Of a stretch of DNA of 47,969 bases, positions 25,841 through 47,821 are shown in pieces. The position numbers were made by a program, and so were the translations under genes. This DNA is from Candidatus Bathyarchaeum sp. (GTDB taxonomy: Archaea > Thermoproteota > Bathyarchaeia > Bathyarchaeales > Bathyarchaeaceae): contig JAOZIF010000021.1 in assembly GCA_026014495.1 (NCBI GenBank), positions 33,249-81,217 of the forward strand, read 5' to 3'. The notes below the pieces were generated by a model, which saw nothing but the letters and a program-made list of their open reading frames with translations, ran no database searches and had not been told where the DNA came from. The stretch's first letter is position 1; each line of letters opens with the position of its first letter.

Positions 25841-26380
25841 ATGAAAAAAATGATTATATTCTCAATAGTAATTATTGTAACGATTTTAAGCATGGTTACA
25901 TCCAATGTTACATCAGACCAAAATGGGTTTGCAATTGGACCTGCTCAACTTGATGTTACAGTTCCAGCGAATGGAAGCGTCACAACTTATGTCTACATTA
26001 CATCATACATTGACGGAGAACTTGTCGTCGGCACAGAAAACTTGGCGTTCAGCATCGAACCAAATACAATTCAAATCACACCAACAGACCTAAACCGAAA
26101 AGTTGAGATTACAGTGCACGGTAACGCTTCCTTGGCTGCAGCACAATATTCAGGCAAACTGACGTTCCTTCTTCACGCTGGAAACAATGTTGCTTATGGC
26201 GTGAAAACCGGAATCAACATCAACCAAGAAGGCGGATCAAAAAACGAGTCTGATTGGATTTTCACAGATATTATAGAGCCGATACAGCAGAATTTATTTG
26301 TGATTCTCGTAGTTGCTGGAATAGTTATCGCTCTAACCATGGGCATATTCATAGGCAAGCGAACAAAGAAAACCACCTGA
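25841..26380 (+). CDS. Exported single beta-sandwich protein with C-terminal TM anchor
   Basis: Signal peptide, FAIGPAQLDVTV...YSGKLTFL beta-rich domain and a C-terminal TM followed by KRTKKTT. Confidence 0.8.
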   Translation: MKKMIIFSIVIIVTILSMVTSNVTSDQNGFAIGPAQLDVTVPANGSVTTYVYITSYIDGELVVGTENLAFSIEPNTIQITPTDLNRKVEITVHGNASLAAAQYSGKLTFLLHAGNNVAYGVKTGININQEGGSKNESDWIFTDIIEPIQQNLFVILVVAGIVIALTMGIFIGKRTKKTT

Positions 26381-26681
26381 GTTTATTTTGATTTAATCAA
26401 AAACCGTTTGTTCTACTGTGCGAGTAATTTGTAGGGCTCATTAAGGGTTACCGAGTCTCTCTCTATAATGATGCTTGTGATGGGTTCTGCTGAAAAGGGT
26501 AAATTTGACAGTTGAGACAATTGTTTCTGTAAAGTAACAGACGTCGAAGAGCTTTGTGAACTTGGTGATACACGATCTGGTCATTTGAGTAATCATATTT
26601 ACTTCATTGGGGCTATAATACATCAAATTGTTGATTATTTAGTGTATGGGCAATAAAAACAGACATTTTGTCCATAAAAAC

Positions 26682-26705
26682 CGAAATGTTTTTATAAACA
26701 TATCG
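26682..26705 (+). promoter_or_regulatory. Palindromic operator over the TATA box, copy 2
   Basis: Identical 24-mer to 25738-25761. Confidence 0.75.
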
Positions 26706-26823
26706 CTCATCACGAATACGTGAGAGAAAGGAGTAGATAATGTGATGTTTGTGAAAACAAATTGTCTCATAAATAACAGTGTGAAACAAAAACAAGTGAC
26801 TATCACAAGAGGGGGGACGTGAC

Positions 26824-28362
26824 ATGAAGACAAAAACAATGACATCAATACTAATGTGTATACTGCTGATTTCTATGGTTTCATTAGCTATAGTTCCAGT
26901 AATGGCATCTGACGTCACAACGGAGATTACTGTTACAAAGCTAGCCAACGACGGCACTACAATCATCGAGCAGGTTACGATAACTGTGGAGGAAATGATG
27001 GCAGGCACTTCAGAACTACCAATATATGGCGATGGAGTGACGCATTACTACCACCAAGGACCCACATTTGACGAAGAAAACATGTGGGACCCTGATGAAC
27101 TCGTAAACGTTGATAGCCGGGATTATGGTGCATGTCAAGGAACAGCTGTCGTAGACCTGTGTGAACAGCTCTCTACTGGCGGAGCTGCAGTTGGAGACGA
27201 AATCGTTATCAAAGCAATTGATGGCTTCAAAAAAACGTTTGATTATAACGATGTCTACGAGCCCGAGCCGGAACTGGGTACAATGGTCATAACGTGGTCC
27301 ACCGTGGACAATGCAGACGGCACAACAGGCGACGTAACTGATGGCAGTTACGATACTGGTATGCGTTTGGTCTTCTTCGCTGATACAACAAACTCAGAAG
27401 GAAAATACGTATATGGCAACTGGGATATGCATGAGACTTTGGCTGAAGATCGAATTCACTACTACTATGGTAGCGGTATTTTGTGGCCATCTTCAAGTGG
27501 TCTTTCTGTGAAGTGGGTAAACGAAATTATAATCTACAGTTCAGAGGATGCACCAGAGGAATCTTCATGGCCCATAACTCTAACTGGCGCTAGTGCATAC
27601 ACAATGGAGCAAACAGAGTTTGAAGAAGGAGCTGAATGTCACAGTGCAACTTGGACTGATGACACTGATGTCTGGAGCGGTATTCCTTTGTGGCGCCTGG
27701 TGGGCTACGTTGATGACGAAATACAGCATGGAGAAGACGCCTTTAACGATGAACTGGCAGCGCTCGGATACGAGGTAAAGATTGTCGCTTTTGACGGGTA
27801 TTCCACAACCTTTGCAAGTGCCGATATCGCCCGTAACGACGACATAATTGTCTCCAATGAACTAAACGATGCAGAACTATCAGGTGACTATTATCCACTA
27901 CGATTGGTTGGACCTGATCTTACTGGCAGTCAGAAAGTGGGGATGATCAAAGAGATTCAGTTGATCGGTCTACCAGAAGTCAATAATCAGGCCTCATTAA
28001 ATGCAACAGTTAACATATTCATCGCGTCTGTAGGTATCGATATTGATCGGGATAACATTGACTATGGTGATGTTGCTGCAGGCAGAAATTCCACGATAGA
28101 AACAGTAGGAATTACCAATACAGGTAACATTGATTGTGATGTAACCCTACAAGTTGACGGTGCTGATGCAGTTGCCCAAGACTTCTATGAACAGTCTCTA
28201 TACATAGATGATGGCATCTATAACATTGATACAGTGATTGCAAGTATCGCGGTTGAAGACACAGATTATGTTGACACTCAGCTTCAAGTGCCAGCGACAT
28301 GGATCGAAGAAATTGGAACCCAAGAAGCGACATTCATCTTCTGGGCCGAAGCTTCCGACTAG
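26824..28362 (+). CDS. Secreted protein: two divergent Cys-less sulfite-oxidase-like (Oxidored_molyb-like) domains plus a shared C-terminal beta domain
   Basis: GTAVVDLC..IKAIDGFKKTF..GMRLVF..SVKWVNEI and VWSGIPLW..VAFDGYSTTF..YPLRLVG align by eye with 42927-44801. Signal peptide present; no TM anchor. Confidence 0.7.
   Translation: MKTKTMTSILMCILLISMVSLAIVPVMASDVTTEITVTKLANDGTTIIEQVTITVEEMMAGTSELPIYGDGVTHYYHQGPTFDEENMWDPDELVNVDSRDYGACQGTAVVDLCEQLSTGGAAVGDEIVIKAIDGFKKTFDYNDVYEPEPELGTMVITWSTVDNADGTTGDVTDGSYDTGMRLVFFADTTNSEGKYVYGNWDMHETLAEDRIHYYYGSGILWPSSSGLSVKWVNEIIIYSSEDAPEESSWPITLTGASAYTMEQTEFEEGAECHSATWTDDTDVWSGIPLWRLVGYVDDEIQHGEDAFNDELAALGYEVKIVAFDGYSTTFASADIARNDDIIVSNELNDAELSGDYYPLRLVGPDLTGSQKVGMIKEIQLIGLPEVNNQASLNATVNIFIASVGIDIDRDNIDYGDVAAGRNSTIETVGITNTGNIDCDVTLQVDGADAVAQDFYEQSLYIDDGIYNIDTVIASIAVEDTDYVDTQLQVPATWIEEIGTQEATFIFWAEASD
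28033..28356 (+). repeat. Duplicated C-terminal domain, copy A
   Basis: 108 aa; 90/108 identical (manual count) to 29648-29971. Confidence 0.9.
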
Positions 28363-28429
28363 ATATCCAAGCAAAAGGTGAATCAGAGTTATATCACCTC
28401 TAATCTCCCTCTTTTTATGTTCCTCATTT

Positions 28430-29974
28430 ATGAGCAGGAATAAAAAAAGGGTGTCCGTGTTTTCCGTTTTTTTTCTAGTTAGTATGTTATTGCTGATTAT
28501 GCCCTTACATGCAGTTTCCGAAAATTATGAAGTGGTTCCGTTGTGGGGACCATACCTTACTGATGTTAGTGAGACAAGCATAACGGTCAACTGGCGAACA
28601 GAAAGCGTCACAAACGGTACTGTTTTCTATGCTACTGATGATTACTTTGATAGTTATGAAAGTTATAACATGTCTATTGACGACTATGATAAAGAACTAC
28701 ATCATGTTCAGTTGACTGGGCTAGCTCCCAACACTACTTACCACTACTGCGTGTTAATTGGAGAAGAGTTTACCGCCGACCACAAGTTCACGACGTTTGG
28801 TAGTGATTCATTCACTTTCATTGTTTATGGAGATACTCAAGAGCAACTTCCCATGTTTACCCAGTTGGAGAGACACAAAATTGTTGCCGAAAGTATTGCT
28901 GCAGAAACTGACATTTCTTTCATTTTACACTGCGGAGACGTGGTTGGCGATGTTGACAACCCAGAAGAATGGGACAGATTTTTCGAAGCAACCCGTTCCA
29001 CACTTGCTGAAACCCCAATATTCACTGTGTTAGGCAATCATGAGGAAAACTCCTCCAACTACTATGACGCCTTTGGAGTATCACAGTGGTATTCTTTTGA
29101 TTGCAGTAACGCACACTTTGCCCTGCTAGATAGCAACAGGTTAAATGCAATTCAGGCAGAGTGGCTTACCGAAGACCTTAGTTGCGATGCAACTTGGAAA
29201 TTCGCCATATTCCACCATCCACCATACAGTTCGACTAGCAGTCATTGGGGTGGATGGATTGACTTGCGTACTACTTGGGAACCCGTGTTCATTGATAATA
29301 GCGTGAATGCCGTCTTTAATGGCCATGTACATGCCTACGAGAGATGCTATGAAAATGGTATTCACTATGCGGTCTTAGGAATTGGCGGTGGACCCTGTTA
29401 TGTGTTAGCCGAGGAGAAGGTGGAGGGCTATTGCAATAGCTTTGAAGACACACTCGGTTATGCCAAAGTGACAGTGAACGGAAACGAAGCGTATATGGAA
29501 ATAATCAAGGTAGCTGATGTTTCCGGCGATGAAGTGACATATGTTTACCCGCCAAACACCGTCTTTGAAACGGTTAGTCTGGGTTCAGAACCGCCGTCAT
29601 CAAGTGCTTCAGTTAGGGCATCCGCAAATTTGATTGTGTCTACGGTGGGTGTTGAGATTGATCGGGATAGCATTGATTATGGTGATGTTACGGCGGGCAG
29701 AAATTCCACTATAGAAACAGTGGGCATTACCAATACGGGTAATGTTGATTGTGAGGTGACACTGGAGGTTAACGGTGTAAATGAAGTTGCCCAGAATTTC
29801 TATGAAAAATCATTGTACATAGACGACAGCATCTACAACATTGATACAGTAATTGCCAGTATCTCGGTTGAAAACACAGATTATGTTGACACCCAGCTTC
29901 AAGTGCCATCAACATGGATCGAAGAAATTGGAGCCCAGGAAGCGACATTCATTTTCTGGGCTGAAGCGTCATGA
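28430..29974 (+). CDS. Secreted purple-acid-phosphatase-like metallophosphoesterase (FN3-like N-domain) plus the shared C-terminal domain
   Basis: GPYL..V....ITVNWRT, HHVQLTGLAPNTTYHY, GDTQ, GDVV, GNHE, HHPPY and GHVHAYER. Confidence 0.9.
   Translation: MSRNKKRVSVFSVFFLVSMLLLIMPLHAVSENYEVVPLWGPYLTDVSETSITVNWRTESVTNGTVFYATDDYFDSYESYNMSIDDYDKELHHVQLTGLAPNTTYHYCVLIGEEFTADHKFTTFGSDSFTFIVYGDTQEQLPMFTQLERHKIVAESIAAETDISFILHCGDVVGDVDNPEEWDRFFEATRSTLAETPIFTVLGNHEENSSNYYDAFGVSQWYSFDCSNAHFALLDSNRLNAIQAEWLTEDLSCDATWKFAIFHHPPYSSTSSHWGGWIDLRTTWEPVFIDNSVNAVFNGHVHAYERCYENGIHYAVLGIGGGPCYVLAEEKVEGYCNSFEDTLGYAKVTVNGNEAYMEIIKVADVSGDEVTYVYPPNTVFETVSLGSEPPSSSASVRASANLIVSTVGVEIDRDSIDYGDVTAGRNSTIETVGITNTGNVDCEVTLEVNGVNEVAQNFYEKSLYIDDSIYNIDTVIASISVENTDYVDTQLQVPSTWIEEIGAQEATFIFWAEAS
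29648..29971 (+). repeat. Duplicated C-terminal domain, copy B
   Basis: Near-identical to 28033-28356. Confidence 0.9.
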
Positions 29975-30087
29975 AAACAAAGGAGTGTTTTGAGCATGAA
30001 ATTTAACACAAAAAAAGAGATGAAAAAGATATGAAAAATAATTGGAAACAAAACGAAAAAAATAAACAAAAAAGGAGAAAAAATCAC

Positions 30088-30921
30088 GTGAAAACGAAAA
30101 TACTGGAGTTAACCCTGATCTTAACACTGATAGTGTCTGTAATTCCGTTCACTGTATATCCTGTAATGGCATCCAATGCCACATCATCCGTTCGCATCGT
30201 CAAATATGCTGCAGATAATACGATAATTTCAGAAACCACCAAAACTTATGAGTGGTTACGAGATAACCTGCCTCAGCAAGGAGACGGAGTGACCCATTAT
30301 TATCACCAAGGGCCTATTTTTGAGGGCGACATGTGGGACCCAACAGAAACACAAAACCTGAAAGACAAAGGGGCCGTCATGGGCACTGCCCTGAAAGACC
30401 TCTGTGAACTTGTAGGAGGTATGTCCCCAGGAAATGAAATTATGCTGAGTGCCGTGGATGGCTGGCACACCGAGTTTGCTTATGAGAACATCTATGAACC
30501 CTTGGATGAACAGGGGGTAATCGCGCTGTGCTGGTATAACGGTGAAGATGCACTGTTTGGAGAACGCTACGGCGATGGCTATACAGGAAACTATTACACT
30601 GCCATGCAAATCGTCTTTTTGGCGGGTACAACTAATGTGAATGGAGAGTATGTTTTCGGTAACTCAGATATGGCGGTGTGTCTGCCAGACGAAAAATACC
30701 AACATTTCTACGAAGGGCTTCCCAGCACAAACGGACTTTCCGGCAAGTGGATTTGTGAAGTGTCAATATTCAGCGGTGAAGCGCCAGTGACACCCGGTGA
30801 AAAGCTGACAGATGGCACATCTGAAGACAGCTCTGAGTTACCCGTAATCCCGATAGTAATTGGCGTTGTTGGAGTGCTGATTATTGCAACTAGTGTGATA
30901 GTCATTTTCAGGAGAAAATAA
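30088..30921 (+). CDS. Exported protein, one insert-bearing Cys-less sulfite-oxidase-like domain plus C-terminal TM
   Basis: GDGVTHYYHQGP, GAVMGTALKDLCELVGG, SAVDGWHTEF and GLSGKWICEV; paralogous to domain 1 of 26824. GTG start at 30088 after AAAGGAG. Confidence 0.75.
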   Translation: MKTKILELTLILTLIVSVIPFTVYPVMASNATSSVRIVKYAADNTIISETTKTYEWLRDNLPQQGDGVTHYYHQGPIFEGDMWDPTETQNLKDKGAVMGTALKDLCELVGGMSPGNEIMLSAVDGWHTEFAYENIYEPLDEQGVIALCWYNGEDALFGERYGDGYTGNYYTAMQIVFLAGTTNVNGEYVFGNSDMAVCLPDEKYQHFYEGLPSTNGLSGKWICEVSIFSGEAPVTPGEKLTDGTSEDSSELPVIPIVIGVVGVLIIATSVIVIFRRK

Positions 30922-30923
30922 AA

Positions 30924-31511
30924 ATGAAGAACAGCAAAAGCAAAAACAAGTGGGCTATTTTGGCACTTATCATCGGCATCACCTTCATTGGTAGTGCAGG
31001 TGCATACTACATATTGGAGTATGTTATCGAAGAACCGATTGACTGGGAAGTTACGCTAATTGGCAGTAACGGCGAGCAGAAAGTAATTACTTACAATGAC
31101 ATACGCAGTTTGCCTTATCAAGACGCCAGTGGCGGATATTTCACGTCAGGCGGTATAGTTTATGGACCCTATGATGTTAGAGGAGTGCTTCTGCAAGACC
31201 TATGCGATCTTGTCGGGGGGATATCTTCTGATGACTATGTTTCTGTAACAGCGCCGGACGGGTACTCCATGGCGTTTGGCTATGAGCAAGTTTGTTTTGG
31301 GGGTTTCCCAGCTTGGGAACCTGGAACAATGGATGAAGTGACAACTGAAACGCAGATGATATTGCTTACGTACAAATGGGAAGGCAAAACTATTGCTCAC
31401 AATGACGGTGGACCACTGAGACTGGCGGTTGTCACTAACGAGACGCTCCTGACTGAAGGACATAACTGGGTTATGTGGGTGAATGAAATAGAAATAAAGA
31501 ACCGTGATTAA
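30924..31511 (+). CDS. N-terminally anchored Cys-less Oxidored_molyb-like domain protein
   Basis: GGYFTSGG, GVLLQDLCDLVGG, TAPDGYSMAF, GGPLRLAVV and LLTEGHNWVMWVNEIEI. Confidence 0.82.
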   Translation: MKNSKSKNKWAILALIIGITFIGSAGAYYILEYVIEEPIDWEVTLIGSNGEQKVITYNDIRSLPYQDASGGYFTSGGIVYGPYDVRGVLLQDLCDLVGGISSDDYVSVTAPDGYSMAFGYEQVCFGGFPAWEPGTMDEVTTETQMILLTYKWEGKTIAHNDGGPLRLAVVTNETLLTEGHNWVMWVNEIEIKNRD

Positions 31512-31617
31512 ACTAGCGCTAGGTGGTTAGAGTTACGTTTTCCAAGTTAACTCTATAAACCAACATTTTTTCTTAAAATCCAAATATCACCCTTATTTTA
31601 TTCACATGTTTGTGCGG

Positions 31618-31733
31618 CATATTAGTCTCCTAATAGTAGTTCATTGTTGAAAACTAGCTTTTTTTCTGAAATTTTCAGCACTGCGCACGTTTGTTCCAAA
31701 GAGTTCACACAAGCATTAGCATAGCAAAAACAG
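31618..31733 (+). repeat. Dispersed intergenic repeat, copy 2 (long form)
   Basis: CATATTAG-tctc-CTAATAG...CATTGTTGAAAACTAGCTTTTTTTCTGAAATTTTCAGCACTGC...AGTTCACA...CATTAG; colinear with copy 4. Confidence 0.88.
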
Positions 31734-31776
31734 AACCCATTTTTTCTAAAAACAAAAGAAATGGTTCGTTACAGGC

Positions 31777-31887
31777 TTAATTTTTGGTGGGCGCAATCCA
31801 CTTGAAGATTTCTTGTATTGCCTTTTCGGAGTATCCCATCTCAACAAGTTTTTGTTTTAGCTCTTTTTTTGTTTCGAGCGTGCTCAC
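31777..31887 (-). CDS. Small protein missed by the ORF track (36 aa, MSTLETKKELKQKLVEMGYSEKAIQEIFKWIAPTKN)
   Basis: GTG start with GAGGGG upstream, protein-like helical sequence, same strand as the upstream operon. Confidence 0.6.
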   Translation of the reverse strand: MSTLETKKELKQKLVEMGYSEKAIQEIFKWIAPTKN

Positions 31888-31924
31888 CTAGTTTTTCCCC
31901 TCTTAAAAATGTTGAAAGAGGGCT

Positions 31925-32221
31925 TTAAGCCCCAAAATTAACCAAAGGTCGTTCTTGTAGATGCTGGTAACCACACTCGCAGGTGTATCCAACTATTGTC
32001 TTTCCCCTCATTATGGGCTCAAAGGTTTTAGCACTGCAGTTATTGAATTGCTTGTGTGTCTTCCACAGCATCTTTAGGTCTTTTTTGTCAATCGCATGGT
32101 GTCTTTTTGCTGAAAGCAAAAACCATGCCAAGACACATCCAAACGCAACCCACACAGTGGGAACCAGAAACTCTGGATGCAAAAAGAACGACTGAAGCGT
32201 AGAAAAAAGCGCCTCAAGCAT
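31925..32221 (-). CDS. Small membrane protein with a possible C-terminal Zn-binding motif
   Basis: One TM, then H...C(x)n-CEC-x2-H; overlaps the stop of the DUF4382 gene. Confidence 0.7.
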   Translation of the reverse strand: MLEALFSTLQSFFLHPEFLVPTVWVAFGCVLAWFLLSAKRHHAIDKKDLKMLWKTHKQFNNCSAKTFEPIMRGKTIVGYTCECGYQHLQERPLVNFGA

Positions 32222-32837
32222 CTGTGTTTTCCTCCTTAGCTTGGGATACAGTGGCTTTTAGAACTGGTCGTAGATTGTTACTGTGACTAATTGACACCCA
32301 ATCGGGTTGCATGTCAATGAGGACAACGACTTCTTCTGCTGCGGTAATATTGAAGTTTGTGATAACATCTATGTGACCAGACGGAACCTTCAAGGGCACT
32401 TCCTCGATGTATTCGTTACCTTCATCGTCAACTCTGTAATACGTCGCGTTTGCCTCAAGCACACTCATCCGAATCTTGTTATAACTTCCTGCATCAAGCT
32501 CAACATCAGCCAAAGGCAGCGTCTCACCATCCTGATACGTAAGAAGATCAAAAGTCAAAGTTGGACCTACCACTGAAAAATCAATAGGAACCCATTCACC
32601 ATCACCATCCCCAGCACTGTGCACTGCAAGGTCACTTATTTCAATCCAAAGCTCATCAACATCAACAGGCGCATCCGTCAACAACACCGTTAACCGCCCA
32701 GTATCCATAGCAACACTAGAAAGAGATTGGGTGCTAGGCAACTCAATCCCAGAAGCAAAAACAGCAACAATTATCGTTGCCGCAATAAGAACACCAGCTG
32801 CTACTCTTAAACCGACTGTTTTCGATTTAACTTCCAT
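32214..32837 (-). CDS. DUF4382-like exported protein
   Basis: N-terminal TM; GRLTVLLTDAP, FDLL, LDAGSYNKIRM, LKVPSG and NNLRPVL. Confidence 0.82.
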   Translation of the reverse strand: MEVKSKTVGLRVAAGVLIAATIIVAVFASGIELPSTQSLSSVAMDTGRLTVLLTDAPVDVDELWIEISDLAVHSAGDGDGEWVPIDFSVVGPTLTFDLLTYQDGETLPLADVELDAGSYNKIRMSVLEANATYYRVDDEGNEYIEEVPLKVPSGHIDVITNFNITAAEEVVVLIDMQPDWVSISHSNNLRPVLKATVSQAKEENTDA

Positions 32838-32896
32838 TTTAATCACTCAAAAAGATATCTGACGAAACAAGATATAAAACAACGTTTTTGAACACC

Positions 32897-32916
32897 CTGT
32901 TCAACTAATTGAACAG
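32897..32916. promoter_or_regulatory. Palindrome CTGTTCAA-ctaa-TTGAACAG (GTTC-N8-GAAC class)
   Basis: Perfect 8-bp arms between the wHTH-TM gene and the DUF4382 gene; same core and spacing as 4789-4804. Confidence 0.65.
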
Positions 32917-32944
32917 AGCCACAACTACCAAAAAAACAGCAATA

Positions 32945-33373
32945 CTACGGGCGACTTCGCCAAACTCTGAAGGTTTCAAACCAAAAAATCACAGTGCTCA
33001 AGGTTCCAAAAATCAAAGCAAAAAGACTGTAAAAATTAACTTCCCGAAACTGAGAAAGAAAAAACACAAAAAGCACAGAAATCATCGACGCATAAGTCAC
33101 GTACCTCGGAACCATGAAACTGCCGACCTTCATAAACTGCTTAAGAACACCCACCTCAACAACCTCCACAACACGATAAACGCCATTCACGTTATCAACC
33201 AAACCCAACTCCACCAACTTATCCAAATGGTACACAGCCAAAGCAGGACTCTTAAAACCAAGCTCCCGCTGAATCTGCCTAGGACCCGCACTGCTCCCAG
33301 AGCACTGCACCAAATACCAGTAAACACGCAATGTGTTTCCTTTCAAGTCACTAGCAACATTTTCTTTAGACAT
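32945..33373 (-). CDS. Membrane-anchored winged-HTH regulator (wHTH + 2 TM)
   Basis: GNTLRVYWYLV...GPRQIQRELGFKSPALAVYHLDKLVELGLV plus two TMs; paralog of 5906-6379. Confidence 0.85.
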   Translation of the reverse strand: MSKENVASDLKGNTLRVYWYLVQCSGSSAGPRQIQRELGFKSPALAVYHLDKLVELGLVDNVNGVYRVVEVVEVGVLKQFMKVGSFMVPRYVTYASMISVLFVFFLSQFREVNFYSLFALIFGTLSTVIFWFETFRVWRSRP

Positions 33374-33388
33374 ACAAAACAACCAACA

Positions 33389-33979
33389 CTACCTACTCCC
33401 CCGAGGAGGCACATACCAAGAATCTGGACTTTGATACTTCACAACCGGAGCATCACTCCTAAACGACAACTTCCGGTCACACAACCGAGTCAACGACAGC
33501 AAAATCTGCTGATGACGCTCTTCATCACCAACAATCAAACTAAAAATATTCAAATCACCCTCACCTTTACCGGACTCATACCCCGCCAAACACGCATACT
33601 CCAAATGAAAAGCCCTCTTATACTCAGCAAACAACAATGTCTCAAACCCAACAAGCATATCCAACAAAGAAAGCAACTCCTCCCGACCAACACACTTGCG
33701 TTGCCCCACATCCTTTGAAAGCGCCTTAATCAATTCCTTATTATACACAATGTTCTCATCACAATCTTTCTCCTGCACCTTAGAACCATTAACCTCATCA
33801 ATTATCGCAACCAATATTGTGGAATGCTTCAAACTATCAGTTGCAATGTAACAGAGCAAAGTTTTTGCTGCTACATCCTCGACTTTCTCAGACAAATTTG
33901 TGTATAACTGAAACAATTCCTTCTCGATGAGTGCTAAAGAAAGAACCTGTCTTTCAAAAATCACAATTTCACTACTCAT
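33389..33979 (-). CDS. Ferritin-like / rubrerythrin-like protein
   Basis: Duplicated helix pairs E(x)6Y...DSLKH and E(x)6Y...DEERH. Confidence 0.7.
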   Translation of the reverse strand: MSSEIVIFERQVLSLALIEKELFQLYTNLSEKVEDVAAKTLLCYIATDSLKHSTILVAIIDEVNGSKVQEKDCDENIVYNKELIKALSKDVGQRKCVGREELLSLLDMLVGFETLLFAEYKRAFHLEYACLAGYESGKGEGDLNIFSLIVGDEERHQQILLSLTRLCDRKLSFRSDAPVVKYQSPDSWYVPPRGSR

Positions 33980-34090
33980 TGGTTATCCCTGTACAATACA
34001 TAAATGGGTGGTCAGTAGTTTCTACAACAAACATTTTATTAAATATTACGACTCAATAAGAGATGACTTATGGAGCACCCATTTTCAACA

Positions 34091-34140
34091 CATATTAGGA
34101 AACTAATAGAGGTTCATTGTTGAAAACTAGCTTTTTTCAG
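34091..34140 (+). repeat. Dispersed intergenic repeat, copy 3 (core only)
   Basis: CATATTAG-gaaa-CTAATAG-AGGTTCATTGTTGAAAACTAGCTTTTTTCAG. Confidence 0.88.
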
Positions 34141-34168
34141 GAAAACATGAACTCAAATGAAAAGTCAG

Positions 34169-34768
34169 TTAAGATTGCGTTTCTTGTTGCATTAGCAAAA
34201 ACTTTTGCAGAGCAATTATTGTTGGAGCGTGAGTTATCTTAAGCGAGTTTAGCATTTCTTTTATGTCTTCAATTGGTACAAGTTTGACGTTTATTTGTTC
34301 GGTTGCTTCTAGCTGTTGTGTTCCCTTTGTTAGGTTTTTGGCTAAAAACAGGTGAGCTTGTTGGGTGCTTCTTGACAGTGGATTAAACCTTCCAATGCAT
34401 TCAATTTTCTCCGCGCTGTAGCCTGTTTCTTCTTTTAGTTCACGAACTGCACTATCTTTGGGGGTTTCTCCTTTTTCGACGTGTCCGCTTGGAATTTCAA
34501 GGCTTAAACAGTTTCTGGGGTACCGCAAAATCTCAATCATTACAATGTTGTTGTCTGTAACGGGGACAACAGATACGAAATCTATTAGCTCCATTTTTGT
34601 GAACGTTATATGTTTGCCGTTGGGCAACATCACTTTGTCGTCGAATACTTTTAGAAAGCTTGAACTACAGATAAGCTTCGTTTCAATGAGTTTCCACTTT
34701 TCCAATATGCTCAACATCCATTGCATTTGTAAACGAAAGGAGCAGATATTAAGGTGATTGCGCGCCAA
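34169..34768 (-). CDS. NUDIX hydrolase (ADP-ribose pyrophosphatase-like)
   Basis: Nudix box GHVEKGETPKDSAVRELKEETGY. The true start may be a downstream Met. Confidence 0.9.
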   Translation of the reverse strand: MARNHLNICSFRLQMQWMLSILEKWKLIETKLICSSSFLKVFDDKVMLPNGKHITFTKMELIDFVSVVPVTDNNIVMIEILRYPRNCLSLEIPSGHVEKGETPKDSAVRELKEETGYSAEKIECIGRFNPLSRSTQQAHLFLAKNLTKGTQQLEATEQINVKLVPIEDIKEMLNSLKITHAPTIIALQKFLLMQQETQS

Positions 34769-34799
34769 TAAACTATAGCAAAGTCGGGAATCCTGAACG

Positions 34800-36335
34800 A
34801 TGACTAAAGCTCTAATTTCAAGTTATAAGCAGCTACTGGAAAAGACCAAGAACATAACAACTCTTCATTCGGCAGCTGCGATTCTTCACTGGGACATGGA
34901 AACAATGATGCCTCCAAAAGGAATCAAAATGCGAAGCCTACAGCTCGCTATGCTCAGCAGAATTGGGCACAAAATGAGTACCGCCCCAGAGATTGGACGA
35001 CTTTTACAAGAAACAATAAATCATCCAGACTACAGCAGCCTAGACTTGGTTCACAAAAGAAACCTGTACCTAATAAAGAAAAGCTACGACGAACAAACAA
35101 AGCTGCCCGAAGAGCTTGTAGTTGAAACCTCAAAACAACAAGCAATAACAATCAACATGTGGAAAAAAGCTAAAGCGACAAAAGACTTCGCCAAGTTCAA
35201 GCCTGAACTCGAAAAACTCTTTGAACTAAAAAAACAGGCAGCCGAAATATTAATGCAAGTCAAAGAAACAGCCACACCATACGATGCACTGGTAGACATT
35301 TTTGAACCTAAAATGAGTTCTGAAGCCATCAGCAAAGTCTTCAAAAAACTCAGAGAAGGACTAGTTTTGTTGCTGAAAAAATGTGAGACTGCACAAAAGC
35401 AGCCTGACACGTCGATTCTTGAGCGCCCAGTTCCTGTTGAACCTCAGCAGAAAATTGGCAAGTTACTTGCCGAGTTCATTGGCTACGACGTAACGTCAGG
35501 CGAGTCTGGAGGCAGAATCGACGAAACAGAGCATCCATTCACAACAGGTTACTATGATGATGTGCGAATCACAACACACTACTACCCACACAGGTTCGCT
35601 TCCTCAATCTTTTCTATATTGCATGAAGGCGGACACGCCATATACGAACAAAATCTAAAACCCGAATGGATGTTTCAGCCCGTTGGAGACGCCTGCTCCA
35701 TGGGATTCCACGAGTCCCAGTCCCGCTTCGTAGAAAACATCATAGGACGCTCCCACGAATTCTGGACCTACTTTTTGCCAGCACTAAAAAAACTCACAGG
35801 CAACGTGCTTTCTGATGTAACTGTAGACGATTTTGTTCATGCAATAAATCATGTTCAATCATCGAAAATTCGGGTTGAAGCAGACGAAGTCACTTATGGT
35901 CTACACGTGATAATACGCTTCAATCTTGAACAAGACCTGTTCGCAGACAAAATCTCGATAGATGAGCTTCCGCAGGTCTGGAACAAAAACTACAACAAAT
36001 ATCTGGGCGTAACCATCAAAGACGATTCTGAGGGCGTGATGCAGGACACGCACTGGGCAAGCGGATTATACGGCTACTTCCCAAGCTACGCACTGGGAAA
36101 CATCTACAGCGGACAATTATTAGCCTGCATGGATACACAACTTCAGGGCTGGCGCGACCAGATAGCTAGGGGCGAATTTGGAACCGTGAAACAGTGGTTA
36201 AACGGCAACGTTCATAGACACGGAAACCTATACAGCCCACCAGAATTAATCAAAACAATCACGGGAAAAGAACTGTCTGTTAAACCATTCATTGATTACC
36301 TGAACAACAAATATTCACAGCTCTACCAATTCTAA
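34800..36335 (+). CDS. Carboxypeptidase Taq family (M32)
   Basis: ETEHPF, HEGGHAIYEQ, HESQSRF, IRVEADEVTY, QDTHW and GYFPSYALG. Confidence 0.96.
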   Translation: MTKALISSYKQLLEKTKNITTLHSAAAILHWDMETMMPPKGIKMRSLQLAMLSRIGHKMSTAPEIGRLLQETINHPDYSSLDLVHKRNLYLIKKSYDEQTKLPEELVVETSKQQAITINMWKKAKATKDFAKFKPELEKLFELKKQAAEILMQVKETATPYDALVDIFEPKMSSEAISKVFKKLREGLVLLLKKCETAQKQPDTSILERPVPVEPQQKIGKLLAEFIGYDVTSGESGGRIDETEHPFTTGYYDDVRITTHYYPHRFASSIFSILHEGGHAIYEQNLKPEWMFQPVGDACSMGFHESQSRFVENIIGRSHEFWTYFLPALKKLTGNVLSDVTVDDFVHAINHVQSSKIRVEADEVTYGLHVIIRFNLEQDLFADKISIDELPQVWNKNYNKYLGVTIKDDSEGVMQDTHWASGLYGYFPSYALGNIYSGQLLACMDTQLQGWRDQIARGEFGTVKQWLNGNVHRHGNLYSPPELIKTITGKELSVKPFIDYLNNKYSQLYQF

Positions 36336-38947: not shown

Positions 38948-39172
38948 AGAACTTGCTTTCCAACCTTGAAAGGGGGAGTCTTCCCTATTCCCTTTCTGTT
39001 TTATGTTACTACGTAAAAAGGATGACGCCTTAACACTAAATCAAAGTGAATATTTGCTCTTACAAAAATTGGAAAATGAGCTTGCCGAAAGCGCTGCTGT
39101 TTATGAAAAACTCATCGTGTTTGTGCTAGCAGTTACTATAAACATTTACTGTAAAGACTATACTTCACACGT

Positions 39173-39325
39173 TCATTGTCTTTTGCTGGCTGTTTTTGAG
39201 ACCATTTTCTGCTCACCTATCCACTGCAATGTCCAACCAACAGTCCAAAGAAAAATAATGAGCGGCAAAAGAACAACGCTTGCTACCTTACGCAGAGCAT
39301 ATTCGTTTCTATTCAAGTTGCTCAT
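39173..39325 (-). CDS. Small single-TM protein missed by the ORF track (50 aa)
   Basis: MSNLNRNEYALRKVASVVLLPLIIFLWTVGWTLQWIGEQKMVSKTASKRQ; clean TM with periodic Trp residues. Confidence 0.6.
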   Translation of the reverse strand: MSNLNRNEYALRKVASVVLLPLIIFLWTVGWTLQWIGEQKMVSKTASKRQ

Positions 39326-39414
39326 CTTAATTCACAACTAAACCACAGCACACAAAATATGTATAACACTTATGAAAACAGACTACAGATTTGCAGTATA
39401 ACCTAGCGCTTATG

Positions 39415-39648
39415 TTACATTTTTTTGAAAACCTTACGGCTAGGGAGCGCGAACAAAAGGAGCCAAAAGTATATCATTAAAATTATCTGGAGAAAAATTC
39501 CTGCAGGAGTGAACAGAATCATCATTGGCGTTTTGCCTATAATGATTAGGGTGACAACAAGAAATAGAAGAACAATAAAAAAGATCAGAATGATTTGCAA
39601 TACAAACGTATACAGCGAACTTGTTTTAACCCCATTTTGGGTCATCAC
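39415..39648 (-). CDS. Small 2-TM membrane protein
   Basis: Two long hydrophobic segments and a basic C-terminus. Confidence 0.55.
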   Translation of the reverse strand: MMTQNGVKTSSLYTFVLQIILIFFIVLLFLVVTLIIIGKTPMMILFTPAGIFLQIILMIYFWLLLFALPSRKVFKKM

Positions 39649-39918
39649 CTCTGTTCTAAAGCTTTTTTGTTTGATATGATTTATAATGTTAACCCTCTTG
39701 TTTAATCATCAGGTGCTAAAAATCTTCTGATAGTTTTACAACAAAACAGCCCCAGAACAGCTAGCCTCAAAAAATAAGCTCGAAACTCAGAAATCCCGTT
39801 TTTGAAAAGGGTTTAAGTAACCGAAAATAGATTATGCGGATGAAAACGTTTCTGAAAGCGAAACCAAGATAAACCACAACTGGAAAAGTATGATATTCAA
39901 CAAAACAGGGGATGCAAC

Positions 39919-40452
39919 TTGAAGACACTAAATATTATTTATATAATCAGAGTCTGCCTAGGAATCTTCGCTGCTCTCATAGCTGCCTTAGTGGTGGACC
40001 TTAAAGTAGGCGACCCACTCATAAATGGCATAACTGTTGCATTAGCTGTATATCTTATCACATATTATCTTCTTAAATGGCAGTTTGGAACCAAAGTGGA
40101 AAAGCCAACCAAGATTCTTTCAATGGGAATCTTTGTTTACTTTATCGTGTTTATCATGTGCTGGGTTCTATTTGTCACGCCTTCCCTTTCCGCTCCAACC
40201 GTAGCATTCACTGTAGACCCACAAACGGCCGCAGTTGATGAAGCTATAACCTTCACATCAACCAGCGAAGACGCAGATGGGGAAATAGTCAAGTATGTTT
40301 GGGACTTTGGAGACGAAACCACCAGTGAAGAAATGAATCCCACTCACACGTATAGCGTAGCTGGAGAATATACAGTTAAACTAAAAGTGGTAGATGACCA
40401 CGGAATAAGCATGACTAACACAACAACCCTGACAGTAAATGCTCTTGGTTAA
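39919..40452 (+). CDS. Three-TM (EMC6/DUF5379-like) protein fused to a C-terminal PKD domain
   Basis: Three TMs ending K.LSMGIFVYFIVFIMCWVLF, then FTSTSEDADGEIVKYVWDFGD...PTHTYSVAGEYTVKLKVVDDHG. Confidence 0.75.
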   Translation: MKTLNIIYIIRVCLGIFAALIAALVVDLKVGDPLINGITVALAVYLITYYLLKWQFGTKVEKPTKILSMGIFVYFIVFIMCWVLFVTPSLSAPTVAFTVDPQTAAVDEAITFTSTSEDADGEIVKYVWDFGDETTSEEMNPTHTYSVAGEYTVKLKVVDDHGISMTNTTTLTVNALG

Positions 40453-40586
40453 CAATTGGTTGATGTTGGTTTATAGCTAACTGATTTTTTGTTGCTTTTC
40501 AGCTTTCTTAGAAAAAGCTCTGGTCTTGATTATTTAACAGCTCATGCTCTTTTATCATGAAAACTTGGAAAATACGCCAAGGAGCT

Positions 40587-41513
40587 TTAGTACACTCTTA
40601 TCTCAGTGACGAACTTAACCCAGAACTGTGCCCATTTGTATTTGTCAACTGGAAGAAACATTCTGAAAGGCCCGCCCTTATTTTGTGAAAGAGGCTCACC
40701 GTTCTCTTGGTACCCTACCAGCATCTGTGCTTCTTCTATTTCTTGAAGCGTATAATTTCGTGAATAGTCGTCAATGGCAAACACAACTATTTTTTCTGCT
40801 CTATAGGACATGTTTGCTGCTTCAAGTATGTCCATTACTGACAAGCCCGTCCAGTCTGATGTTCGGCTTCCGTCTCCTGGGACAAACTCGGCTTCTACTG
40901 TGACTTGTTGAAATAGTGTCATGTTTTTGCTGCTAATTGTTATCGGGTTTTTAACAGCTCCAGTGATTGATACTGTCCATAATCCTATGTTTATTGTGGA
41001 AACGTGCTCGACTTGGTGTTCTTTCGAAAAGTAAGGTGCAATCAGTTTTACTGGGCCTCCGGTTTGTTCAGTCATCCACTGATCGTCTTTTACGAAGACT
41101 AACGTGATTTTGTTGATGTCTTGAAAATATGGGTAAGTTGTGCTGTTCCATGCTTGGAAAACATTTAATGTGGCGCTGTGTCCATCCGATGCTATTACTT
41201 CAATTTGTCCTGCGTCCCAGAGCATTCCGCTCATGTTGCAAAAGTCAAAAAGTGTTACTCCTGTGTAGGTCACGTTTTCGCCGTTAACTTTTGTGACAAC
41301 AGTGGTCAGTGGCATTTCAGAGATTTCGTTTAGTGTCAAAGTTTTTTGTTGCTCAACATTGCCTGTAACTGTCACTTGCCACTGTGGAGGCTCACCTTCA
41401 GGTAGACTAATTGCTTCGTTTTGAGAAGGCAGATACTGGATAACTAAAACTGCGGCTAATACAATTACTGCGGCAAGGCAGATGGCCATTGCCATTTTTA
41501 TGTTTTGCTTCAT
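40587..41513 (-). CDS. N-terminally anchored protein with two Cys-less Oxidored_molyb-like domains
   Basis: WQVTVTGNV..YTGVTL..ASDGH..GGPVKLIAP and WTVSITGAV..WTGLSV..AIDDY..GGPFRMFLP..FWVKFVTEI. Confidence 0.85.
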   Translation of the reverse strand: MKQNIKMAMAICLAAVIVLAAVLVIQYLPSQNEAISLPEGEPPQWQVTVTGNVEQQKTLTLNEISEMPLTTVVTKVNGENVTYTGVTLFDFCNMSGMLWDAGQIEVIASDGHSATLNVFQAWNSTTYPYFQDINKITLVFVKDDQWMTEQTGGPVKLIAPYFSKEHQVEHVSTINIGLWTVSITGAVKNPITISSKNMTLFQQVTVEAEFVPGDGSRTSDWTGLSVMDILEAANMSYRAEKIVVFAIDDYSRNYTLQEIEEAQMLVGYQENGEPLSQNKGGPFRMFLPVDKYKWAQFWVKFVTEIRVY

Positions 41514-41596: not shown

Positions 41597-41620
41597 CGAT
41601 ATGTTTTAGTATGAATAACG
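41597..41620 (-). promoter_or_regulatory. Degenerate operator, copy 4
   Basis: Minus strand reads CGTTATTCATACTAAAACATATCG; the right half AAACATATCG is identical to copies 1 and 2. Lies 84 nt upstream of 41513. Confidence 0.5.
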
Positions 41621-42793: not shown

Positions 42794-42866
42794 AATAATG
42801 TAAATAATATGCTAAAAAACGTAATAGAATGCATTTTATCCATTATTCCAAACGGTATCATACTTC

Positions 42867-42890
42867 CGAAATGCTTTTATGTGCATATCG
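42867..42890 (+). promoter_or_regulatory. Palindromic operator, copy 3
   Basis: CGAAATGCTTTTATGTGCATATCG; 20/24 identical to copies 1 and 2, with both 7-bp arms intact. Confidence 0.72.
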
Positions 42891-42926
42891 TTTGAATGTG
42901 AGCATAGAACAAAGGGTGAATTCACA

Positions 42927-44801: not shown

Positions 44802-44826
44802 ACAATAAAGGGATAATGAGGCAAAA

Positions 44827-45915
44827 TTGAAACGACTACACATCGCATTTGCAGTCCTTGCAATTGCACTTCTTTTCTCTTCTACCTATTTTTTTGTTAT
44901 AACATACGTTTTTGTAGATTCGCCTAAGACCGTTCTTAATATTCACTGTGCTACCAGTCTTCAATATCCGCTTGCAAGTGTAGAGGCAGATTTTGAGGCT
45001 GTTCATCCTGAGGTTGATGTGCAAATTGAGGGTCATGGAACAATACAGGTAATACGGCATGTTACAGAGTTGGGTCAAAACAACGATTTGTTGTTTGTTG
45101 CAGATTACGGGCTGATACCCGTTATGATGTATGACACAAAGATGCCTGACAGTGACGAGAGTTATGCCGATTATTACATCCGTTTTGCAACTAACACTCT
45201 TGTTTTGGCATACACGAACACTAGCAGATATGCTGACGAAATTAATGCGGATAATTGGTATTCAATTTTGGTTCGCTCTGACGTAACCTTGGGTTTGGGT
45301 AATCCGCAGGTGGCTTCAATTGGTTATCGCGCAATAACTGCGATTCAGTTAGCCGAAATATATTATGATAGTCCAAGCCTGTTTCATGACCTTATCAGCG
45401 CAAATTTGAATCCGCCTATAAACTCAATATCTGATGGCGAAACTTACACCATTACTGTTCCAGAAGTTCAGAATCCTGTGGGTGATAAACTGAAGTTGAG
45501 GACAAGTGAAGTAGACCTGACAGCTTTGCTTGATTCGGGGCACCTTGACTATTGTCTGATTTATCTTAGCAACGCGCAACAGTATGGTTTTAATTACATT
45601 AAGCTTCCTGACGAAGTTAACATGGGTTCATCTGAATGTGAAAGCATCTACCAGCAAGTTGAAGTTGTGTATGAACATCAAAGATTTGCTACTATTTCAC
45701 TTGACCGAACTGGTGAAACAATATACTATGGGGTGACGATACCAAAAAATGCGCCCAATGCTGAGTTAGCAGAGGACTTCATCAAATTCCTGTTAGAAGG
45801 AACCGGAAAAGATGATTTCGAGTTAGCTCATCATCCTGTTTTCAGTTCATCTTACACTGACAACCTTGCGGCGGTTCCAGAAAGTCTAAAATCACTGGTT
45901 ATTCAAGAACCCTAA
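44827..45915 (+). CDS. wtpA: Tungstate/molybdate ABC transporter binding protein, WtpA-like with an altered pocket
   Basis: VADYGLIP, FATNTLVLAYT, NWYSIL, GYRA, R.SEVDL..LL.SG..DY..IY and IYYGVTIPKNAPNAELA. Confidence 0.85.
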   Translation: MKRLHIAFAVLAIALLFSSTYFFVITYVFVDSPKTVLNIHCATSLQYPLASVEADFEAVHPEVDVQIEGHGTIQVIRHVTELGQNNDLLFVADYGLIPVMMYDTKMPDSDESYADYYIRFATNTLVLAYTNTSRYADEINADNWYSILVRSDVTLGLGNPQVASIGYRAITAIQLAEIYYDSPSLFHDLISANLNPPINSISDGETYTITVPEVQNPVGDKLKLRTSEVDLTALLDSGHLDYCLIYLSNAQQYGFNYIKLPDEVNMGSSECESIYQQVEVVYEHQRFATISLDRTGETIYYGVTIPKNAPNAELAEDFIKFLLEGTGKDDFELAHHPVFSSSYTDNLAAVPESLKSLVIQEP

Positions 45916-45958
45916 CTGTTAACAAGTTTCCTAGTAATCTAATTACGAGGGCGAAAGT

Positions 45959-46759
45959 TTGACTTGGCTAAAAGAAAAGTCACCATTCGTTATTGTGTCC
46001 TTTCTTTTAGGTTCAGTTTTGGTTCTGTTTTTGGTGATTCCTATTTTCAGTTCGTTAGGGAGTTCTGCTTCGGGGCTGTTGGATGTTTTAACTGATGGAA
46101 GAACTCTTAACGCCATTTGGGTGAGCTTTTACTGCGCTTTTCTGGCAACAGTGTTCATGTTTATCTTGGGAATTCCGTTTGCTTACCTGTTTGTTCGTCA
46201 CAGTTTTCTGGGTAAGAACATTCTTGACTCGTTAATTGACATACCTATTTTGATTCCTCATAACACTGCGGGTATTGCTTTGCTTTTTGTTCTCAGACCA
46301 GACGCTTCAATCGGCGCAGCCTTTTCAATGTTGGGCATCACTTTTTTGGATACAGTATGGGGAATTGTTATTGCTATGGCTTTTGTTAGTGCACCTTTCA
46401 TGATTAGAAGTGCTCAAGAAGCGTTCTTGTCAATAGACCCTGAGATGGAAAAGATTGGCAGAAGCCTAGGGGCAACAAGATTCAAAGTTTTTTTGAACAT
46501 AACTTTTCCGTTGGCATCAAGAGGAATACTAACAGGGTGTCTGCTTACGTGGGCACGAGCAGTAAGCGAGTTTGGAGCAGTTGTGTTGATTGCATATTTT
46601 CCAAAGACAGCCCCCGTCCATTTGTATGACGTGTTTGTCAGTGAAGGCTTGAGTGCTGCGTTGCCAATTAATGCGTTGCTAATTTTGCTTGCTATTGTAA
46701 TTCTTGTGGTCTTCAGGGTTATAGTTGCTAAACCAGCAAAGCTCATGTACAGAGGGTAG
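45959..46759 (+). CDS. wtpB: ABC transporter permease, WtpB/ModB-like
   Basis: DIPILIPHNTAGIALL, EAA loop DPEMEKIGRSLGAT and WARAVSEFGA. Confidence 0.9.
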   Translation: MTWLKEKSPFVIVSFLLGSVLVLFLVIPIFSSLGSSASGLLDVLTDGRTLNAIWVSFYCAFLATVFMFILGIPFAYLFVRHSFLGKNILDSLIDIPILIPHNTAGIALLFVLRPDASIGAAFSMLGITFLDTVWGIVIAMAFVSAPFMIRSAQEAFLSIDPEMEKIGRSLGATRFKVFLNITFPLASRGILTGCLLTWARAVSEFGAVVLIAYFPKTAPVHLYDVFVSEGLSAALPINALLILLAIVILVVFRVIVAKPAKLMYRG

Positions 46760-46771
46760 ATGTGAAACAAA

Positions 46772-47821
46772 ATGGGACTTGAACTTGAAAACATATCAAA
46801 AACTTGGCAGGGCTTCGAGCTAAAAAATATTGAACTAAAAGCCGAGACTGGTGACTACTTTATAATACTTGGTCCTACAGGAGCAGGCAAAACCCTTCTT
46901 CTTGAAACAATAATGGGCTTTCACCATCCAGATAACGGAAAAATTGTTCTAGACGGATTAGACATAACACGAGCACCGCCAGAAAAGCGACACATCGGTT
47001 ATGTTTCTCAAAATTGTGTTCTGTTTCCACACTTGAACGTTCGCCAAAACATTGAGTTTGGTCTAAAAATGAGGGGAACCCAAAAAACTGAACGCACAAA
47101 ATTAGTCAATCAGATTCTTGAGGTTACTGGGCTTACGTTAATACAACACCGCAGACCTGCAACCCTGAGTGGCGGAGAAAAACAAAAAGTTGTTCTTGCA
47201 CGTGTATTAGCAACCAGCCCCAAAACAATACTGTTTGACGAGCCATTAACGGGGATAGACCCAGAAGCCGCTCGTGAACTCAAAAAAGAATTGAAACGAA
47301 TCAGTAGCAACACAGTAACAATAGTTCACGTTACCCACAATCAAGTTGAAGGATTTAGTTTAGGCAATAAAATGGCAATAATAAAATCTGGAGAAATTGT
47401 ACAAACTGGAAAACCAAAAGAAATTTTTGCAAACCCCAAAACCGAGTTTGTTGCAAAGTTTCTTGGTTACGAAAACGTTTTCAAGGCTCAACTGGTAAGT
47501 CAACAAGATTCATTTTTTGTTGTAAACGTAGAAGGCGTTACAATTAAAGTGTCAGAAAATGTAAACAAGCCCGAATGTACAATCGCAATTAGACCAGAAG
47601 AAATCAGTATACACTTTTCGCAGATACAGGATACATCCATGAATGTTCTGAACGGGACTATCACCGAATTTGCAGACCAAGGACCCGCCGTTTTGTTAAC
47701 TGTAGACGCTCCACTGCCTTTTCAAGCCCTTGTAACCAAACGTTTTTTTGTTGAAAAAAATCTTGAAATTGGGCAAAACGTGTGGCTTGCATTCAAAAGC
47801 AATTCAGTTAAAGTGATGTAA
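46772..47821 (+). CDS. wtpC: ABC transporter ATPase with C-terminal TOBE region, WtpC-like
   Basis: GPTGAGKT, LSGGEKQ, ILFDEP, HVTH, IRPEEI and a TOBE-like tail. Confidence 0.92.
   Translation: MGLELENISKTWQGFELKNIELKAETGDYFIILGPTGAGKTLLLETIMGFHHPDNGKIVLDGLDITRAPPEKRHIGYVSQNCVLFPHLNVRQNIEFGLKMRGTQKTERTKLVNQILEVTGLTLIQHRRPATLSGGEKQKVVLARVLATSPKTILFDEPLTGIDPEAARELKKELKRISSNTVTIVHVTHNQVEGFSLGNKMAIIKSGEIVQTGKPKEIFANPKTEFVAKFLGYENVFKAQLVSQQDSFFVVNVEGVTIKVSENVNKPECTIAIRPEEISIHFSQIQDTSMNVLNGTITEFADQGPAVLLTVDAPLPFQALVTKRFFVEKNLEIGQNVWLAFKSNSVKVM

Follow-up and report, generated by a model that had tools for sequence, protein, structure and literature searches.

Within a 47,969-nucleotide stretch of contig JAOZIF010000021.1 (hereafter the window), taken from a metagenome-assembled genome of Candidatus Bathyarchaeum sp. 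(GCA_026014495.1; 2.19 Mb, 93% complete), we find five exported or membrane-anchored proteins with ten domains of the sulfite oxidase (SUOX) type, two phosphatase-like enzymes and a WtpABC importer. The evidence is very strong that these genes form one set controlled by molybdenum and tungsten (Mo/W) and functionally linked to Mo/W homeostasis; we refer to this set, where it recurs, as the cassette. In both bacteria and archaea the SUOX-like genes are inherited together with those of the importer and share their regulation. With a probability of roughly 0.6 we propose that the set would serve as a surface apparatus induced by Mo/W starvation, in which non-catalytic binding modules and phosphoesterases capture and process extracellular Mo/W species and pass the oxyanion to WtpA. 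The nearest protein relatives of the window are those of Candidatus Bathyarchaeota/Bathyarchaeum.

The system occupies two gene blocks (Table 1). Block 1 (25841-31511, plus strand) holds in order P0006, P0001 (512 aa), P0216, P0002 (296 aa) and P0003 (195 aa), and in block 2 the minus-strand gene of P0004 is divergent from that of P0217, which is followed by P0005, wtpA, wtpB and wtpC. The gene of P0005, the largest SUOX-like protein, ends 25 nt before a wtpA whose product matches the TIGR03730 equivalog model (295 bits, cut-off 243), which bears out the proposal of a first-pass annotation of this DNA that this protein heads the wtpABC operon. In its longest open reading frame (ORF) P0005 would start at 42879 and be 48 nt longer than from the likely start, 42927; as the fourth of the boxes described below overlaps the extension 42879-42926, the start at 42927, which the first-pass annotation had used, is the better one.

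A search with the 24-bp palindrome CGAWATG-N10-CATWTCG returned four ModE-type boxes in the window, three of them exact, compared with 0.46 expected by chance, and each stands upstream of a gene block. Genome-wide, with one mismatch allowed, only two copies lie beyond the window, and the reversed control pattern gives none. One extra box, on contig C58, is located 20 bp before the gene of a ModE-like regulator (a ModE helix-turn-helix and one Mop domain) that is divergent from a tupA-like ATP-binding cassette (ABC) operon. The geometry of the window boxes, TAT(G/A)-N10-(C/T)ATA, is that of the validated Methanosarcina acetivorans ModE motif RTTATGT-N8-RCATAAY (PMC12327845) and of the Escherichia coli consensus (PMC545781). 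An exact M. acetivorans-type motif precedes the cassette in one Methanosarcinaceae locus, and similar boxes stand before it in loci of Moorellaceae, Methanobacteriota and Bathyarchaeota. Judged from their sequences, the boxes and the ModE-like regulator would make up a putative ModE regulon that controls the cassette in the archaeon. A one-mismatch box between the genes of ribosomal protein L10e and KsgA (contig C148:10539-10562; L007:4040-4063) was set aside as probably due to chance. The operon on contig C58 (L006:380-4734) encodes a second Mo/W importer, with a TupA-like binding protein, a permease and a TOBE ATPase.

The cassette recurs in many other genomes. Scanning with an alignment of type-A domains (defined below by their loop), one genome per species, recovered 55 relatives, from Dehalococcoidia, Anaerolineales, Moorellaceae, Peptococcaceae, Methanosarcinales, anaerobic methanotrophic archaea (ANME-1/2), Methanomicrobiales, Methanotrichaceae and Bathyarchaeota, together with 25 distant canonical SUOX genes of Nitrospira; neighbouring genes were found by searching the six-frame ORFs of the loci with the proteins of the window. 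A WtpA-type ORF begins no more than 400 bp after the end of the type-A or A-B-B-A gene, often overlapping it, in 50 of the 52 loci with contig room. In 42 of 54 loci the type-A gene is immediately preceded by a P0002-like gene, and the other members present in these 54 are P0001-like (33), purple-acid-phosphatase (PAP)-like (24), WtpB (31), WtpC (31) and Mop/TOBE (10) proteins. None of these cassette genes, WtpA included, stands beside the 25 canonical Nitrospira SUOX genes. The same gene order is found in metagenome contigs, P0006-like genes also lie inside the cassette of other genomes, the gene order around P0217 is repeated in locus L089, and in other Bathyarchaeia the homologues of P0004 adjoin the same Wtp-type row of metallophosphoesterase, SUOX-like, binding-protein, permease and ATPase genes. 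The type-A family is unevenly spread within the class, with 8 carriers among the 151 genomes sampled. The link to WtpABC put forward in the first-pass annotation is very strongly supported by the neighbourhoods, the Moco riboswitches (see below) and the ModE boxes, and in these loci the homologues are not linked mainly to unrelated transporters. In the Methanomicrobiales contigs L049, L050 and L051 the WtpA, WtpC and PAP-like frames are broken into several overlapping fragments, which could be assembly frameshift errors or pseudogenes.

In 17 bacterial loci a riboswitch for the molybdenum or tungsten cofactor (Moco/Wco; RF01055) lies directly upstream of the first SUOX-like gene, with scores of 62-85 bits against a gathering score of 36, and five of these 17 loci carry tandem pairs. 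Two riboswitch alignments were inspected, and the P3 stem is absent in L047 and present in L059; lengths of ~120 versus ~140 nt suggest that both P3 types are common. The riboswitch without P3 stem is the tungsten-associated variant (Regulski et al. 2008, PMC2408646), and the same authors noted P3-lacking Moco RNAs before 'putative sulphite oxidase' genes of Syntrophomonas wolfei, which they flagged as an unexplained exception. The cassette probably explains this exception: the S. wolfei genes are probably of the same family, whereas Regulski and colleagues took their products as enzymes that use Moco or the tungsten cofactor.

A second operon, at L016:4033-8460 (minus strand) and also in L055 and L057, encodes a 162-aa SUOX-like protein, a FecCD-type permease, an ABC ATPase, a Peripla_BP_2 protein and a 247-aa protein. 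In L016 it lies behind its own Moco riboswitch, and the third-best PDB match of the Peripla_BP_2 protein is MolA HI_1472 (E 1e-19). Since this operon holds a small SUOX-like gene, SUOX-like modules also accompany a type II, MolBC-A-like importer. A link to cobalamin or siderophore uptake, which the FecCD and Peripla_BP_2 families of these three loci might bring to mind, was rejected, because the riboswitch and the MolA-like binding protein make the operon another Mo/W route and not a refutation of the Mo/W link.

A Pfam search of the five proteins placed PF00174 above cut-off in P0001, P0003, P0004 and P0005, the best match being that of P0004 (3e-29). P0002 has no Pfam match, yet it shares 42% identity with the first half of P0001, and all ten domains can be aligned with the canonical YedY-like SUOX protein of this genome, which bears the Cys and with which they share the skeleton WxG, A-x-DGY, PLR and (V)K(W)V-x-EI; the earlier count of five exported or anchored proteins with ten SUOX-like domains thus stands. 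According to the loop of the Cys hairpin, P0003 and domains 1 and 4 of P0005 are of type A (GGYxTSGG), domains 2 and 3 of P0005 and domain 2 of P0001 are of type B (SWTDDxGDVW), and domain 1 of P0001 and the domain of P0002 are of type C (GDGVTHYYHQGP), whereas the two domains of P0004 fall outside these types and are closest to Pfam. The canonical YedY-like protein (contig C81; L008:1315-2103) is membrane-anchored and has an intact 'TLHCVEGW' Cys motif and no obvious twin-arginine signal.

In the alignment the canonical column of the Mo-ligand Cys ('HCVxxW' motif) is replaced in nine domains. All ten had been claimed to be Cys-less, and we count the loss for nine only because domain 2 of P0001 has C272-H273 beside this column. 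All 20 orthologues have the His at 273, while at 272 there is a Cys in 17 of them and a His in the other 3; in a profile-profile alignment (hhalign, probability 95%) with canonical 'H-C-V-x-x-W' proteins, H273 falls on the conserved His and the column of the catalytic Cys is taken by a variable Ser, with C272 two residues earlier. Four domains have another conserved Cys, which follows the WxG strand and lies in the helix 'DLCxLVGG'; it is invariant in the type-A family and recurs in P0001, P0002 and P0004. It is unlikely to be a substitute Mo ligand, as it aligns by sequence with a hydrophobic helix position of canonical SUOX (L008 'KDLL'). The type-A domains further have a near-invariant Thr in the hairpin loop, and the Tyr of D-G-Y is invariant in their family. 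All five proteins have an N-terminal hydrophobic segment, to which P0002 adds a C-terminal anchor; the twin-arginine consensus is absent from all five (P0002 has 'KRRK' only) and TatC was not found in the 93%-complete genome. Export of the five is by a Sec-type route.

Structure prediction agrees with the SUOX assignment. The AlphaFold model of P0003 (mean predicted local distance difference test score, pLDDT, 89.6) matches sulfite oxidases, SorA, nitrate reductase and YedY in Foldseek at E ~1e-7, the named structures being 1sox, 2blf, 1ogp and 1xdq, and its small-protein matches are the PruR structures 7kom, 7rkb (neopterin-bound), 7kp2 and 7kos, with template modelling (TM) scores of 0.65-0.74 on the PruR side. 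The model of P0001 (pLDDT 74) matches the same families and in addition a FimA-like (immunoglobulin-like, Ig-like) structure, a match that we attribute to the C-terminal module. The SUOX-type fold claimed at first from motifs is therefore borne out, and neither model showed an unrelated fold.

PruR is both the best small structural match of P0003 and the best PDB sequence match of P0004. It is a periplasmic, Cys-less SUOX-fold protein in which a Tyr and a Trp sandwich the bound pterin and which regulates a cyclic di-GMP enzyme (PMC11194511), and as it binds pterins without the Cys it provides a published precedent, not named in the first-pass annotation, for a SUOX fold that has no Cys and serves as a ligand receptor. 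Like PruR (Agrobacterium Atu3496 with its Vibrio and Klebsiella homologues; 7kos, 7kou, 7kom, 7kp2, 7rkb; PMC11194511), the proteins described here are small, exported and presumably non-enzymatic, with a SUOX fold that lacks the Mo-ligand Cys, and the ligand-stacking Tyr appears to be conserved: in the sequence alignment the Tyr of the PruR N-x-Y motif (NDY) falls on that of D-G-Y (DDY/DGY). The C-terminal aromatic (WVKW) appears to match the region of the stacking Trp of PruR; this last-strand aromatic is present in types A and C and in domain 2 of P0004 and absent in type B.

In PruR a Pro-Trp motif replaces the Cys, whereas the loops here read GGYxTSGG, WTDDxGD or HYYHQGP; PruR is proteobacterial and periplasmic and binds monapterin or neopterin, whereas the hosts here are single-membrane anaerobes. 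PruR forms a two-gene operon with the GGDEF/EAL enzyme DcpA, while here a WtpA-type gene follows in nearly all loci (50/52) and the SUOX-like proteins are partnered by WtpA, phosphoesterases and a Mo/W-controlled ABC importer. With sulfite oxidase and YedY (MsrP, PF00174) the proteins have in common the fold, the core motifs WxG, DGY, PLR and KWV and Pfam matches above cut-off, but they have no Cys ligand in at least nine domains, no twin-arginine translocation (Tat) signal and no dimerisation or haem partner.

The importer itself is of a particular kind. WtpA of the window matches the Archaeoglobus fulgidus and M. acetivorans WtpA structures at E 1e-67, and the best NCBIfam matches of the permease and the TOBE ATPase are WtpB and WtpC, both below the equivalog cut-offs. 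All SUOX-linked binding proteins tested pass the WtpA equivalog model, and throughout this subtype there is a His in an 'HGS' motif that is absent from solved WtpA and from second, non-adjacent WtpA copies. Most SUOX-linked relatives have no acidic residue in R-x-x-E and keep the Asp of DPCGYR, whereas in the protein of the window, where the first motif reads GHGT, the Asp has been lost (NPQVASIGYR) but the Glu remains (LRTSEVDL), as in the nearest relative. These two residues are reportedly (Hollenstein et al. 2009) the two carboxylate ligands of the octahedrally coordinated metal. As the pocket of the linked WtpA is altered, the bound species may differ from the octahedrally coordinated oxyanion of classical WtpA. 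Six loci (L014, L019, L022, L031, L044 and L063) have two WtpA genes, a SUOX-adjacent 'GHGS' subtype and a second copy with other pocket motifs ('FHAGSL', with no His before G-S, and an acidic residue in IRPKSVEL); in some of them both copies flank one WtpBC pair, and in L014 a riboswitch lies between the copies.

The phosphatase-like protein P0216 combines PF16656 and PF00149, an N-terminal PAP domain and a metallophosphoesterase core, and its best PDB matches are plant PAPs. In true purple acid phosphatases the Tyr ligand of GDxxY is the source of the purple colour; in P0216 it is missing and the motif reads GDVVG. The C-terminal modules of P0001 and P0216 (28018-28362 and 29630-29974) are 80% identical over 115 residues, and homologues elsewhere carry cohesin or dockerin domains, which suggests that P0001 and P0216 dock into one surface complex; the shared module may be a docking or assembly tag. 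P0006 is a possible surface anchor. Its identification as a cohesin was rejected for want of Pfam support, though cohesin proteins occupy that position in L004 and L005.

Based on these data we propose the following course of events. The SUOX-fold domains would be PruR-like binding modules rather than enzymes, placed at the surface of a cell with a single membrane, with P0002-P0005 held in the membrane and P0001 and the phosphatase docked through their shared C-terminal module. These modules would capture extracellular Mo/W-containing species, the two phosphatase-like dinuclear-metal enzymes would process what is captured, and the oxyanion would be handed to the specialised WtpA and pass through WtpBC. 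A ModE-like repressor would turn the set off when molybdate or tungstate is plentiful, the Moco/Wco riboswitch being the presumed equivalent in bacteria.

Several observations weigh against such an apparatus. Control by a riboswitch or by ModE would fit Moco-using enzymes equally well, the block of P0001-P0003 lies 11 kb away from wtpABC in the window, and the incompleteness of the genome leaves the absence of TatC short of proof. Moreover, C272-H273 sits at the metal-ligand hairpin of one domain, so that the earlier description of non-catalytic binding proteins agrees with the SUOX/PruR-like fold and with the missing canonical Cys in at least nine domains, but is called into question for domain 2 of P0001.

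As to what the modules might bind, metal held by pterin-dithiolene from decayed cofactor is a tentative candidate, and inorganic or thiolated oxyanion has similar weight. Strict cofactor salvage, as proposed in the first-pass annotation, is a sub-case of the starvation-induced apparatus: the modules would bind environmental Moco/Wco or molybdopterin, the phosphoesterases would cleave the phosphate or the dinucleotide, and metal or cofactor would be imported. We consider it doubtful. It is attractive in that the SUOX fold is a known holder of a single molybdopterin, that the pterin-stacking Tyr of PruR appears to be kept as D-G-Y with the WVKW aromatic at the region of its stacking Trp, that the phosphoesterase would be given a natural substrate, and that in related loci a Moco riboswitch precedes the genes of a small SUOX-like protein and a FecCD-type importer. 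However, the genome makes its own cofactor: it encodes MoaC, two MoeA and two tungsten-type AOR and hence requires the metal, not the finished cofactor, so that import of intact cofactor is not supported. WtpABC is an oxyanion-type importer, the FecCD-linked binding protein resembles the oxyanion-binding MolA, the type-B domains are without the C-terminal aromatic, and free Moco is very labile. A related route is no less speculative, in which single-membrane anaerobes would recover W/Mo at their surface, by binding, hydrolysis and import, from the pterin-bound cofactor of dead cells or from a secreted pterin-dithiolene chelator; that the degenerate SUOX domains would be its receptors and the PAP-like enzymes its releasing step is likewise a guarded suggestion.

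It is improbable that the proteins are extracellular Mo/W-cofactor oxidoreductases with a non-Cys ligand, regulated by the cofactor because they consume it. Moco riboswitches do precede genes of Moco enzymes, as Regulski et al. read the S. wolfei cases (PMC2408646), and the C/H-H dyad of P0001 domain 2 and the near-invariant hairpin-loop Thr of type-A domains could be looked upon as ligands of this kind. Yet the Cys is missing in at least 9 of 10 domains, there is no Tat motif in the proteins and no TatC found, redox partner domains are lacking, the genes are translationally coupled to the binding-protein gene in 50 of 52 loci, and the small proteins nearest in structure are those of the PruR type, which are not enzymes. 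It is equally improbable that Mo/W or a competing anion would be buffered or stored at the surface, for protection or as a reservoir, with no hand-over to the importer: the many tandem binding modules and the Mop/TOBE storage-type proteins of 10 loci would suit such a role, whereas a ModE box or an OFF-type riboswitch would rather fit induction under scarcity than under excess, and the coupling to importer genes is tight. Still less can be said for sensing in the manner of PruR, with extracellular pterins reported to a signalling partner and no feeding of a transporter; the structural similarity to PruR (TM 0.65-0.74, PruR side) invites it, but the loci examined showed no GGDEF/EAL partner of the DcpA type, the proteins lack the PW motif, and the partner gene is of the WtpA type. 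Phosphate scavenging by a PAP-like enzyme and an anion importer was rejected in view of the WtpA family of the binding protein and the control by a Moco riboswitch or ModE box.

Table 1. Features of the two gene blocks and their ModE-type boxes (positions in the window)
Feature	Position	Strand	Description
ModE-type box 1	25738..25761		CGAAATG-N10-CATATCG, exact; ~80 bp before 25841 gene
P0006	25841..26380	+	179-aa exported protein, C-terminal transmembrane anchor; no Pfam family
ModE-type box 2	26682..26705		identical to box 1; ~119 bp before 26824 gene
P0001	26824..28362	+	secreted; type-C SUOX-like domain, type-B SUOX-like domain (C272-H273), C-terminal Ig-like module
P0216	28430..29974	+	secreted purple-acid-phosphatase-like metallophosphoesterase
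P0002	30031..30921	+	signal peptide, type-C SUOX-like domain, C-terminal transmembrane anchor
P0003	30924..31511	+	N-terminal transmembrane anchor, one type-A SUOX-like domain
P0004	40587..41513	-	N-terminal transmembrane anchor, two SUOX-like domains, ligand position without Cys
ModE-type box 3	41597..41620		2 mismatches; divergent promoter region, 40587(-) / 41681(+)
P0217	41681..42793	+	second exported metallophosphoesterase, C-terminal transmembrane anchor
ModE-type box 4	42867..42890		exact; 37 bp before likely start 42927
P0005	42927..44801	+	N-terminal transmembrane anchor, four SUOX-like domains ordered A-B-B-A; first gene of wtpABC operon
wtpA	44827..45915	+	WtpA-family binding protein, altered pocket
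wtpB	45959..46759	+	WtpB-like permease
wtpC	46772..47821	+	WtpC-like ATPase with TOBE domain

The genes that lie between the two blocks (31511-40587: DUF4382, rubrerythrin-like, NUDIX, M32 carboxypeptidase, NFACT and PKD) show no tie to the system.

Importer genes, boxes of the ModE type and riboswitches belong to the usual equipment of Mo/W homeostasis, as in WtpABC, ModABC, TupABC and MolBC-A under control of ModE or a Moco riboswitch, from which the system of the window differs in the changed metal pocket of its WtpA subtype. To our knowledge no described Mo/W importer system includes extracellular accessory binding proteins or phosphoesterases. In the literature searched we found no description of extracellular SUOX-fold or phosphoesterase partners of Mo/W importers, and none of the cassette itself. 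What the window adds is an archaeal regulon that would be governed by ModE boxes instead of a riboswitch, a split cassette, a Cys/His-His dyad in one domain, and a reciprocal loss of the two carboxylate ligands between WtpA subtypes.

Tungsten and molybdenum limit central processes of anaerobic life, among them methanogenesis, methane oxidation, acetogenesis, syntrophy and aldehyde oxidation, and a binding protein with an ABC importer is generally regarded as all that their uptake requires. Conserved, cofactor-regulated extracellular modules and phosphoesterases placed before the importer imply a hitherto undescribed first step of uptake, which may be of importance in sulfidic sediments with their short supply or chemical masking of these metals. 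On this reading the widespread labels 'molybdopterin-dependent oxidoreductase' and 'YedY catalytic subunit' for such proteins would need correction, and the idea of SUOX-fold ligand receptors, known from PruR, would be extended to archaea and to nutrient uptake. If W/Mo is indeed recovered from pterin-bound forms by binding, hydrolysis and import at the surface of these organisms, they would have a way of acquiring trace metals that is new, and the molybdopterin-binding fold would be put to a new use.

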